This document shows, piece by piece, positions 9,071-40,922 of a stretch of DNA of 60,756 nt; position 1 is the stretch's first letter; each line of letters begins with the position of its first letter. This DNA is from an uncultured Thermoplasmatales archaeon (lineage in GTDB: Archaea > Thermoplasmatota > E2 > UBA202 > DSCA01). Below the pieces are notes generated by a model, which saw only the letters and a program-made list of their open reading frames with translations, was not told the origin of the DNA and made no database searches. Made by a program: the position numbers and the translations under genes. The stretch is taken from the NCBI GenBank assembly GCA_964514975.1, contig CAZESS010000012.1, positions 1 to 60,756 of the forward strand, given 5' to 3'.

Positions 9071-9144
9071 TGGGCCCGGCCGGATTTGAACCGACGACCA
9101 TCTGGTTATGAGCCAGACGCTCCACCAGCCTAAGCTACGGGCCC
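9071..9144 (-). tRNA. tRNA-Ile2 (CAT anticodon, agmatidine type)
   Basis: Cloverleaf GGGCCCG/CGGGCCC acceptor, TCTGG-CTCATAA-CCAGA anticodon arm, GGTTCAAATCC T arm, A73; GGGCCC acceptor is typical of archaeal Ile rather than Met; CCA not encoded. Confidence 0.9.
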
Positions 9145-26475: not shown

Positions 26476-26561
26476 GCTGAGGTAGCCCAGCTCGGAAAGG
26501 CGCAGGCCTGGAGAGCCTGTGGGGCTCACGCCCCTCGAGGGTTCAAATCCCTCCCTCAGCG
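26476..26561 (+). tRNA. tRNA-Ser (GGA)
   Basis: GCTGAGG/CCTCAGC acceptor, CAGGC-CTGGAGA-GCCTG arm, long variable arm GGGGC..GCCCC, GGTTCAAATCC, G73. Confidence 0.95.
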
Positions 26562-26666
26562 CTCTTTTACCGGCATGGTTTATAAAAATTATCTGCGGGA
26601 GGACCAGCCGGGGCGGGCTGTCATGTTGCGTTATCGCGGTCATGCCAGAACAGGAAATGGCCGTAT

Positions 26667-38806: not shown

Positions 38807-39622
38807 GTGTACTCACCGCTCATCGTAGCTGTGAGCAGCATGGCGGTCGCCGGCGTAGCGTGTATGCTCTATGGCATTGGGTTTCATCCGGCGCTGCTCG
38901 CCGGCGCATTCCTGGCCACCATGGGCGTGTATACGTTTAATATGGTGACGGACAGGGGCGAGGATGCGGTGAACATGCCGGGGCGGGAGCGGTATTTTTT
39001 CAGCGATACCCGACATCTGGTGGCCGTTGCCCTCGTCTCGTATGGCCTCGCCCTGGGTGTCGGCGCGATGGTGAGCTTGTTTGCCGTGCCGGTGTTGCTC
39101 GTACCGCTCGTCCTGGGCATCTTGTACAGCGTGCCCGTCGGCGTCCGACGGTTCAAGGACTGTTTCGTGGGGAAAAACGTGACGGTGTCGCTGGCCTTCG
39201 GGCTGGAGGCGGCGCTGCTGCCCGCGGTGCTGGGGTTCGACTGGCTGTTTTTCGGGTTGGTGTTTTCGTTTATCTTTGTGAAGGGCATGGTGAACACCAT
39301 CGTGTTCGACGTGCGGGACCGGCGGGGGGATGCGGCGATGGACGTCGGCACGGTTCCCGTGCGCCTTGGCTCTCATGGCACGCTGCTGCTCCTGCTGGCG
39401 CTGAACTCGCTGCTGGTGCCCTGGCTGCTGCTGGTACTGCATGCCGGGGTGTTCACGCTGTATGTGCCGGTGCTGGTGTTCAGCATCCTGTACAGCTACG
39501 GGTATGTTGTGTATCTGGGCCGCGGGGTGGAGGTGCCGAAGAGCCATTACGGGTTTTTGGTTGACGGTGAGATGGCGGTGTTGTTCGTGCTGTTCCTGGC
39601 GACGGCATGGCTGGCGGGGTAG
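38807..39622 (+). CDS. UbiA prenyltransferase family protein
   Basis: Asp-rich motifs NMVTDRGEDAVN and NTIVFDVRDRRGD, YS.P, many TM helices; start uncertain. Confidence 0.85.
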   Translation: MYSPLIVAVSSMAVAGVACMLYGIGFHPALLAGAFLATMGVYTFNMVTDRGEDAVNMPGRERYFFSDTRHLVAVALVSYGLALGVGAMVSLFAVPVLLVPLVLGILYSVPVGVRRFKDCFVGKNVTVSLAFGLEAALLPAVLGFDWLFFGLVFSFIFVKGMVNTIVFDVRDRRGDAAMDVGTVPVRLGSHGTLLLLLALNSLLVPWLLLVLHAGVFTLYVPVLVFSILYSYGYVVYLGRGVEVPKSHYGFLVDGEMAVLFVLFLATAWLAG

Positions 39623-39662
39623 CCCGAAATAATAAAATACGGGGAGGCATTCCCTGTGGTGT

Positions 39663-39755
39663 GGCCCGGGTAGTGTAGCGGCAACATAGGGGACTGTGGA
39701 TCCCCTGTCTCGGGTTCAAAATCGCTTCGAGCGTATGAAAATCCCGGCCCGGGCC
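39663..39755 (+). tRNA. tRNA-His (GTG) with encoded G-1 and a 21-nt intron at position 59/60
   Basis: GCCCGGG/CCCGGGC acceptor, GGGGA-CTGTGGA-TCCCC arm, C73 and G-1; T-loop TTCAAAT restored by removing 39721-39741. Confidence 0.9.
39721..39741 (+). other. BHB-type tRNA intron in the T-loop
   Basis: TTCA/TGAA 4-bp central helix with 3-nt bulges AAA and AAT, closed by the T-stem and a CGC-TTCGA-GCG hairpin. Confidence 0.85.
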
Positions 39756-39912
39756 TCTCTTTTCCATTTTGCCAGGTGGAGCGCTGGCTCCGGCATGGCG
39801 TTGTATCAGGAAACGTTGTATCATGGAGATATGAGAAGGGGCGGGGGGAGAGGTGGCGGGGTACGCCACCCGGGGTAGAGAGCTATTCTATTGTCCTCCC
39901 CCCAAGTTGTTT

Positions 39913-39931
39913 TGATAGCACTTTGCTATCA
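39913..39931. promoter_or_regulatory. Perfect inverted repeat TGATAGCA-N3-TGCTATCA (operator or RNA hairpin)
   Basis: Read directly; about 20 nt from TATA-like TATATAAA at 39953-39960. Confidence 0.5.
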
Positions 39932-40049
39932 TTATGTCTATAGGCAAGGCAATATATAAACGCTTCGGTTTTTCCGCCGCGCTGTCAACGCAAGAAACCA
40001 TGGACGCTGCCATCCGAAAAATAATAGTAGGGCGGCGGCATATGCCACC

Positions 40050-40922
40050 ATGAGCGACACAAAAACCCTGATGCGGAAGGGAAAAGTCAAGGAGGCATAC
40101 GACCTGCACGACGGCACGCTCGAGTTCGTGTTCACCGACAACGTCTCCGTGTTCGACAAGGTCATCCCCACCACCATCGACCACAAGGGCGAGGTGCTCT
40201 GCCGCATCTCCGCCTTCTGGTTCCAGCGGTGCGAGGACCTCGGGGTCAACACGCACTTCATCAGCGCCGAAGGAAACCGGATGCAGGTCAACAAGTTCAA
40301 CATCATCACCGACTACGACAAACTGGATGCTCGCAGCACAGGATGCATGATACCCCTCGAGGTCATCGCCCGCTACTACGTGGCCGGCTCCCTCTACGAG
40401 CGCTTCAAGGACGAGGGCATGGACTACGGCGACGAGCTGCCCGAGCCCATCGTCGAGTTCACCACCAAGTTCGAGGAATACGACCGCAAGCTCACCGAAC
40501 AGGAAGCGATGAACATCGCCAGCCTGACCCGGGAGGAGCTCGAACACATCAAGCAAACCGTCCTGGACATCGACCAGCACATGAACGACACCGTCAGACA
40601 GCGGGGGCTCATCCACGTCGACGGCAAAAAAGAGTTCGCGTTCAACGACCAGCGAAACCTCGTGCTCGTCGACACCTTTGGTACCCCCGACGAGGACCGC
40701 TTCTGGGACGCCAAAAAATACCGGCAGGGCGTGTTCGAGGAGCGCAGCAAGGAGTTCGTCCGCGCCCACTACCGCGACAGCGGCTACTACGACCGGCTCA
40801 AAAAAGCGCGCGAGCAGGACAAGCCGGAGCCGGAAATACCGCCGCTGCCTGACGACGTCGCCAGAGAAGCCAGCGAGCTCTACATCGACATCTACGAGCA
40901 GATAACCGGCGAATCATTCTAA
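40050..40922 (+). CDS. purC: SAICAR synthetase
   Basis: GKVKE.Y, D.VSVFD, IPLEVI.R.Y..GS, TTK.E, VDGKKEF, DTFGTPDEDRFW, SKEFVR. Confidence 0.95.
   Translation: MSDTKTLMRKGKVKEAYDLHDGTLEFVFTDNVSVFDKVIPTTIDHKGEVLCRISAFWFQRCEDLGVNTHFISAEGNRMQVNKFNIITDYDKLDARSTGCMIPLEVIARYYVAGSLYERFKDEGMDYGDELPEPIVEFTTKFEEYDRKLTEQEAMNIASLTREELEHIKQTVLDIDQHMNDTVRQRGLIHVDGKKEFAFNDQRNLVLVDTFGTPDEDRFWDAKKYRQGVFEERSKEFVRAHYRDSGYYDRLKKAREQDKPEPEIPPLPDDVAREASELYIDIYEQITGESF

Follow-up and report, generated by a model that had tools for sequence, protein, structure and literature searches.

Among the known non-canonical positions of tRNA introns is 59/60, within the T-loop, which has been described in Crenarchaeota (PMC4090602, citing Sugahara 2008 and Fujishima 2010). 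An intron at this position in ARMAN-2 is cleaved in vitro by the splicing enzyme EndA in its epsilon2 form (PMC3239211). EndA proteins of the alpha4 and alpha'2 types need a strict hBHBh' bulge-helix-bulge (BHB) motif with 3-4-3 geometry, and the euryarchaea that carry these types have single canonical introns, with M. kandleri and M. thermautotrophicus as the multiple-intron exceptions (PMC3239211, PMC4033280, PMC5829648).

Here we describe a computational analysis of a tRNA-His(GUG) gene from an uncultured Thermoplasmatales archaeon, in which the T-loop is interrupted by 21 nt at position 59/60. The gene lies in a 60,756-nucleotide stretch of DNA (hereafter called the window), which is contig C12 of a 1.96-Mb metagenome-assembled genome (MAG) that comprises 66 contigs and is 98.9% complete. 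Our analysis indicates that this is very probably a functional single-copy gene whose insert is a protein-spliced BHB intron.

The ARMAN-2 tRNA-Cys intron occupies the identical T-loop site and is likewise BHB-type, although cleavage by EndA has been shown in vitro for ARMAN-2 and is predicted here. Furthermore, ARMAN-2 combines a relaxed hBH/BHL structure with a three-unit epsilon2 EndA that has a specific loop, whereas the present gene has a 3-4-3 core in a genome whose two-unit alpha'2-type enzyme is without the insert (PMC3239211). Thermoproteales and Crenarchaeota share with the present lineage introns at 59/60, near-identical introns across isoacceptors, and tRNAs with multiple introns, as in tRNA-Asp(GUC) of this genome. 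However, these organisms use an (alpha-beta)2 EndA with a Crenarchaea-specific loop and carry introns at many positions, whereas 59/60 is the only non-canonical site found in the present member of the Thermoplasmatota (PMC4090602).

Two euryarchaeal systems are also relevant. The alpha'2 EndA of A. fulgidus and its 37/38 introns (PDB 2gjw and 1r0v) are alike in enzyme architecture, 3-4-3 motif, and predicted chemistry, but at canonical 37/38 introns the anticodon loop supplies the exon half of the central helix (H), whereas here the T-loop UUCR would do so. The pre-tRNA-Glu(UUC) of M. kandleri carries a relaxed D-loop intron in addition to one at 37/38, and thus M. kandleri is also a euryarchaeon whose loop-less EndA faces a non-canonical intron. 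Unlike the enzyme and the T-loop intron described here, M. kandleri EndA is a natural heterotetramer and its intron forms an HBh' motif in the D-loop (PMC5829648).

We found no report of T-loop introns in Thermoplasmatota in the literature, although such introns may be listed in supplements, for example Table S7 of tRNAscan-SE 2.0 or the figure and tables that PMC5829648 gives by species. The main text of a paper on Thermoprofundales has no occurrence of either 'tRNA' or 'intron' (PMC9585477), and the only intron mentioned in a paper on Methanomassiliicoccales is a group II intron (PMC4153887). The tRNA-His intron is therefore of a known kind and at a known site, but we found no report of it from this phylum or alongside this type of enzyme.

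Architecture of the tRNA-His gene

The 93-nt precursor encodes both G-1 and C73 and includes a D-arm, an anticodon arm, and a T-arm whose loop is interrupted between A59 and U60 (Table 1). In its minimum free energy (MFE) fold (-41.5 kcal/mol, z = -2.80, a stability matched by 1 of 200 shuffled sequences), the T-stem leads into a UUCA:UGAA helix, which is followed by the hairpin CGCU-UCG-AGCG. The BHB core consists of the 3-nt bulges AAA and AAU, which lie on opposite strands and flank the 4-bp UUCA:UGAA helix. The 5-bp T-stem serves as the outer helix h. Throughout the window's genus, the helix h' inside the intron is imperfect, with one U:A pair, a bulged U, and then 4 bp, which the MFE fold draws as a 4x2 internal loop. 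In the orthologue from genome G006, by comparison, h' is a strict 4 bp.

When the exons are joined by script, ARAGORN reports a tRNA-His with an 8-bp acceptor stem (including G-1:C73), a 5-bp T-stem, and the T-loop TTCAAAT. This joining follows the rule that BHB motifs are cleaved after the second base of each bulge, which is taken from the literature (PMC3239211). A run of A residues allows both cuts to slide by 1-2 nt with the same product, and therefore the designation '59/60' rests on BHB geometry and not on sequence alone.

These observations agree with the original prediction regarding the identity of the tRNA (GTG anticodon, G-1, and C73), the 21-nt insert with its TTCA:TGAA helix, AAA and AAT bulges and hairpin with one bulged base, and the restoration of TTCAAAT when each bulge is cut after its second base. 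The same prediction called the BHB motif canonical, which is true of its 3-4-3 core and does not extend to the imperfect h'.

An AT-rich box noted by eye 24 nt upstream of G-1 is a possible archaeal TATA element, and the T-rich trailer, which is similar in genomes of the same genus, is a possible oligo-T terminator.

Table 1. Locations of the tRNA-His(GUG) gene, its parts, and other tRNA genes and introns. Coordinates without a prefix are those of the window; C prefixes denote other contigs of the same genome.
Feature	Location	Strand	Basis or remarks
Pre-tRNA-His(GUG)	39663..39755	+	G-1 = 39663, C73 = 39755; sequence, ARAGORN, Rfam, fold
5' exon, tRNA positions 1-59	39664..39720	+	Anticodon GTG 39696-39698
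BHB intron (putative), 21 nt, T-loop position 59/60	39721..39741	+	Sequence, fold, comparison with relatives
3' exon, positions 60-73	39742..39755	+	Sequence, in-silico splicing
Acceptor stem, 7 bp	5' strand 39664-39670; 3' strand 39748-39754	+	Sequence
T-stem 5' strand TCGGG	39710..39714	+	Pairs with CCCGG 39743-39747; outer helix h of BHB
Central helix H, exon half TTCA (T54-A57)	39715..39718	+	4 bp with intron TGAA 39736-39739
5' bulge AAA (A58, A59, first intron base)	39719..39721	+	Predicted cut after 39720
Intron-internal helix h' TCGCTTCGAGCGTA	39722..39735	+	U39722:A39735, bulged U39734, CGCU:AGCG stem, UCG loop
Central helix H, intron half TGAA	39736..39739	+	Sequence, fold, relatives
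3' bulge AAT (two intron bases and U60)	39740..39742	+	Predicted cut after 39741
AT-rich box AAATAATAAAATA	39627..39639	+	24 nt upstream of G-1; by eye
T-rich trailer TCTCTTTTCC	39756..39765	+	Similar in same-genus genomes
tRNA-Lys(UUU)	C4:87037-87143	-	33-nt 59/60 intron, strict motif, 9-bp h'
tRNA-Ala(CGC)	C3:56171-56280	-	38-nt 59/60 intron
tRNA-Asp(GUC)	C2:144665-144790	-	31-nt 59/60 intron and strict 37/38 intron
Near-identical or identical T-loop introns	G058: L058, L063, L068, L072, L080; G068: L064, L069, L081, L083

Copy number and support from DNA runs

No second tRNA-His was found in this genome by ARAGORN with or without introns, by Rfam, or by a blastn search with the gene, which returned 1 match. 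For reference, ARAGORN lists 35 tRNA genes without introns and makes 46 calls with introns, and the Rfam tRNA model gives 43 matches at E<=1. The gene in the window is the sole copy found, although in a MAG of 66 contigs a second copy could lie on unassembled DNA. The only anticodon missing from the set is that of tRNA-Ala(UGC), which was not found by any method used and may reside on unassembled DNA. Euryarchaea often keep this gene in the rRNA spacer.

Window positions 39300-40100 were compared with contigs from four public DNA runs of four studies (X1, X2, X4, and X5), all of which contain the insert. Contigs from X1, which is possibly the source sample, and from X5 span both intron junctions, and contigs from X2 and X4 hold the entire insert and extend 25 nt past it on the 3' side. 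None of the four runs lists a joint that skips the insert. The X4 contig carries three variants (T>G at 39726, G>A at 39729, and A>T at 39730) that match the hairpin variant of the same-genus genome G001. An intronless tRNA-His-like contig in X1 was set aside because it belongs to another organism, as judged by 5 differences, 2 gaps, and different flanks. Separately, in the X2 and X4 contigs, 69 bases just 3' of the tRNA (39766-39836) are replaced by 68 others, which marks this region as a strain-variable spacer.

Conservation among tRNA-His genes of relatives

We compared 30 tRNA-His loci, drawn from this genome and from relatives. In 18 of them the T-loop contains a complete insert, 18-49 nt in length, and a further insert is cut by a contig end. 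Ten loci are intronless, and one, in G015, has a 37/38 intron instead. In all 18 complete inserts, four bases pair with U54-A57 and are followed by the AAU bulge, which the script did not impose. The recurrence of this architecture in 18 of 30 loci is far above chance.

The strongest single result is the exact match between in-silico spliced products and natural intronless genes. Specifically, splicing of loci L007-L010 yields exactly L011, the intronless gene of their own genus, and splicing of L024 and L025 yields exactly the intronless L027.

The insert interiors are unrelated between genera, and what stays constant is the ends that form the BHB motif. The tRNA-His insert is also carried by four other genomes of the window's genus or family, and the exons and intron stems are conserved across genus and family. 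Within the genus, differences in the 21-nt intron are confined to the loop of the hairpin and the pair that closes it, which is U-A, but G-U in G001. Shorter orthologous introns occur in G005 (19 nt) and in G006 (18 nt, with a perfectly strict h'), and h' at this site is also fully strict in L024, L046, and L049. Among 44 distinct inserts, tRNA position 57 and its partner form A:U in 36, G:C in 4, G.U in 2, A.A in 2, and A.C in none. The retention of structure while insert sequence varies, position 57 included, is supportive of a maintained BHB motif, and these are related sequences that do not amount to statistical proof.

A different arrangement is seen in L030, a tRNA-His gene on contig C61 of genome G015, which has no T-loop insert and carries 19 extra nt directly after anticodon-loop position 37. 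Read from its sequence, the tRNA-His intron position thus appears to differ between genera of one family.

Other interrupted tRNAs and their detection

Three more single-copy tRNAs of this genome (Lys-UUU, Ala-CGC, and Asp-GUC; Table 1) carry an insert at exactly 59/60. These genes were found through low-scoring Rfam hits and a loose T-arm scan, with candidates sorted by the presence of an AAT bulge and a cloverleaf. A stricter T-loop-insert pattern recovers the same four genes with no control matches. The T-loop introns of tRNA-Asp and tRNA-Ala are more relaxed than that of tRNA-His, the former having an extra A opposite the bulge and the latter a 2x2 loop after one pair.

The remaining tRNAs are uninterrupted or have a 37/38 intron, and hence 59/60 is the only non-canonical site found. 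There are approximately 11 introns at 37/38, and the strict hBHBh' motif fits 8 of the 12 intron calls made by ARAGORN. Of the other four calls, one is a false gene. This false positive is a 157-nt 'tRNA-Ala(cgc)' at C9:37917-38073 (-), which is GC-rich, coding-like sequence without a cloverleaf. No strict-motif fit was obtained for the 37/38 calls in Leu-UAA, Trp, and Pro-CGG, for which the anticodon index or the motif may be at fault.

One further tRNA-like sequence, 63 nt in length, lies in an AT-rich stretch at C6:89094-89156 (+) and scores 34.3 bits with Rfam. It has an acceptor stem, a D-arm, and a T-arm, and the place of the anticodon arm is taken by a 4-bp stem with a 5-nt TTTTT loop. 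This sequence may be a tRNA-like remnant of a mobile element or virus.

Standard tRNA finders perform poorly on the genes with T-loop inserts, as had been foreseen. The ARAGORN call for tRNA-His (39663-39734) stops at 39734 and has a poor T-arm and acceptor stem. The Rfam score for this gene is 29.6 bits versus a cut-off of 29, compared with 61-64 bits for intronless orthologues and 31.7 and 33.3 bits for two other insert-bearing orthologues. Moreover, neither ARAGORN nor Rfam lists tRNA-Asp(GUC), and tRNA-Ala(CGC) falls below the Rfam cut-off at 27.4 bits. The window's other tRNA genes, Met(CAT) at 9071-9144 (-) and Ser(GGA) at 26476-26562 (+), are uninterrupted and have normal scores of 65.9 and 54.5 bits, respectively.

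Distribution of T-loop introns in the lineage

A search of a genome collection with a pattern for tRNA-His plus a T-loop insert matched 20 species records. By label, 16 are Thermoplasmatota, Thermoplasmata, or Thermoplasmatales MAGs, two are Micrarchaeota, one is Hadarchaeum, and one is simply an 'archaeon'. One matched record (L033) is a contig of the same-genus genome G002. By these labels the lineage is euryarchaeal in the old sense, as the original prediction implied. Another matched record, Thermoplasmatales archaeon JdFR-43 (L035), has an insert identical to that of L007 from the sister family f2. JdFR-43 is placed in subgroup B of Thermoprofundales, formerly MBG-D, by one paper (PMC9585477).

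We also applied a generic T-loop-insert pattern to 401 genomes sampled from the phylum and used its reverse as a control. In family f1 all 11 other genomes were matched, as were 13 of 14 genomes in f2 and 3 of 3 in f24, at 1-9 matches each. Thus, in f1 and f2, two families of the same order, 24 of 25 other genomes are matched 1-8 times each. The control gave no match in the window's genome or in 23 of these 25 genomes (G021 gave 2 and G024 gave 1). Elsewhere the matches are sparse, and approximately 30 control matches occur among the other 375 genomes. In combination with the four genes of the window's genome, these counts support the earlier proposal that a non-canonical site is used, and probably spliced, in this lineage.

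When the insert was removed in silico from loci in five genomes, ARAGORN recognized a complete tRNA in 28 of 29 rows, and many isotypes are represented (the rows count two sites twice and omit 3 of the 30 loci, namely L056, L062, and L065). Some introns are shared between different tRNAs. In G023, an identical 44-nt intron is present in His and Gly-GCC genes (L071 and L075), and Leu, Ala, Glu, Asp, and Arg genes of G058 and G068 carry introns of a single family (Table 1). The presence of identical introns in different isoacceptors suggests that introns may have spread between tRNA genes. Real T-loop introns are also found in families f49 and f50 (Arg-CCU, Lys-UUU, and Gln-CUG), each accompanied by a second intron according to ARAGORN. 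The pattern matches in family f10 (G172, G216, and G279) were rejected as false because they have no complementary T-stem and yield no tRNA call.

It is tempting to speculate that an order of the Thermoplasmatota hosts mobile BHB introns that colonize only the T-loop 59/60 site, and that its alpha'2 EndA, although loop-less, accepts an imperfect 5' site. We consider this broader proposal to be tentative, and somewhat more doubtful than not.

Splicing enzymes and proposed mechanism

EndA in this genome is encoded by a single ORF (C3:10892-11914) of 341 aa with the Pfam domain order N-C-N-C, a layout that, as typed from its sequence, is of the two-unit alpha'2 type. Among proteins of solved structure, the closest to it are the fused enzyme of M. 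kandleri (5x89, the best PDB match) and the A. fulgidus alpha'2 EndA. Residues 181-336 align with residues 6-166 of M. jannaschii EndA with gaps of no more than 2, and the protein is also collinear with the loop-less A. fulgidus enzyme. The sequence alignment revealed none of the traits of broad-specificity EndA proteins, namely separate alpha and beta subunits, a three-unit protein, or a Lys-bearing loop insert. No second EndA-like gene was found in the genome, in which both Pfam domains match the single ORF, twice each. RtcB is encoded at C15:28510-29814 (598.6 bits).

Full-length EndA homologues are present in 36 of 41 genomes searched. Two full-length matches occur in G007 (contig C75) and in G038 (on two contigs). 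The two in G007 share a contig, face opposite ways, and score identically, and either a duplication or an assembly repeat could be the cause.

Given these components, the following pathway can be proposed. In the precursor, the T-stem would serve as the outer helix, and U54-A57 would pair with the 3'-proximal UGAA of the intron to form the 4-bp central helix. One 3-nt bulge would then comprise A58, A59, and the first intron base, and the other would comprise the last two intron bases and U60, with the short intron hairpin closing the BHB motif. Cleavage by the two-unit alpha'2-type EndA dimer is predicted to fall between the second and third bases of each bulge, and subsequent joining of the exons by RtcB would restore the normal T-loop UUCAAAU. 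The site is one where an alpha'2 enzyme could work, because the core has 3-4-3 geometry and because the archaeal enzyme reads the motif and not the tRNA body. Likewise, the universal UUCRAAU T-loop and the T-stem would supply half of the splice motif, such that an intron ending in YGAAAA might fit any tRNA. This contribution of the T-loop probably accounts for the presence of introns at one and the same position in many tRNAs of the lineage.

Cleavage and ligation of the tRNA-His precursor, as well as the exact bonds involved, are what we infer from conservation, essentiality, and the existence of intronless alleles. Several observations count against splicing by EndA, specifically the imperfect h', the loop-less enzyme, and the relaxed Asp and Ala introns, which stand apart from the strict motif that fits 8 of the 12 ARAGORN calls at 37/38. 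Indeed, the 5' sites of the His, Asp, and Ala introns should be poor substrates on the basis of published assays of other alpha'2 enzymes. Either the imperfect h' of tRNA-His and the relaxed 5' sites of tRNA-Asp and tRNA-Ala are tolerated, or the EndA of this organism is broader in specificity.

Alternative explanations

The insert might have inactivated the tRNA-His gene and left a decaying pseudogene, with a working copy elsewhere. Genes could be unassembled in a genome of 66 contigs, as may be so for the missing tRNA-Ala(UGC), but no other tRNA-His was found at 98.9% completeness, and the exons are fully those of a tRNA and vary little from genus to genus. BHB geometry is kept in every one of the 18 complete inserts, with changes that fall in loops or are compensated, and similar inserts reside in three other single-copy tRNAs. 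Decay of this kind is therefore very improbable. Still another concern is that the insert is foreign to the organism's DNA or that the contig is chimeric, given that the genome is a MAG and that X1 also has an intronless tRNA-His-like contig. However, the latter contig represents another organism, the contigs from four runs of four studies carry the insert in its native flanks, and four other genomes of the genus or family have it as well. We consider an assembly or binning artefact to be scarcely credible.

An RNA that retains the insert, and functions with an enlarged T-loop or an extra arm, would be compatible with a data set that consists of DNA only. However, the insert locks U54-A57 into a helix and would thereby destroy the T-loop, a feature kept by every other tRNA of this genome. 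In addition, its interior varies freely in length (18-49 nt) and sequence while only the BHB-forming ends are fixed, and the intronless alleles of sister species differ in nothing else, as expected for a spliced intron. Retention thus also seems very improbable. The last alternative is that the insert is removed in some way other than the standard EndA reaction at both sites, perhaps with EndA acting only at the well-formed 3' site and another factor or register being needed at the imperfect 5' site. This is suggested by the imperfect h' of tRNA-His, the greater irregularity in tRNA-Asp and tRNA-Ala, and the poor in vitro processing of a relaxed HBh' intron by A. fulgidus alpha'2 EndA and the fused M. 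kandleri EndA (PMC5829648). Against it, both bulges are 3 nt and lie 4 bp apart, which is the core measured by the enzyme, h' is strict in the orthologues of G006, L024, L046, and L049, and no second EndA-like gene was found in the genome. Non-standard removal is consequently unlikely, and we favor standard splicing of the tRNA-His intron by EndA and RtcB.

Implications

In this lineage, essential tRNAs, which here include His, Lys-UUU, Ala-CGC, and Asp-GUC, are missed or mis-called by common tools, and MAGs therefore seem to be without them. The part of these findings that deserves follow-up is the lineage-wide yet site-restricted spread of introns under a loop-less alpha'2 EndA. This clade combines an alpha'2-type enzyme with as many as 8 T-loop pattern matches in a sampled genome and with two-intron tRNAs, and it offers a natural experiment on whether such enzymes are limited by position or by the strictness of the motif. 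If the proposed colonization of the T-loop is true, the link of non-canonical and multiple introns to (alpha-beta)2 or epsilon2 enzymes would not be general. The identical introns in different tRNAs, together with the intronless alleles of sister species, provide a series of recent gains and losses at one defined site.
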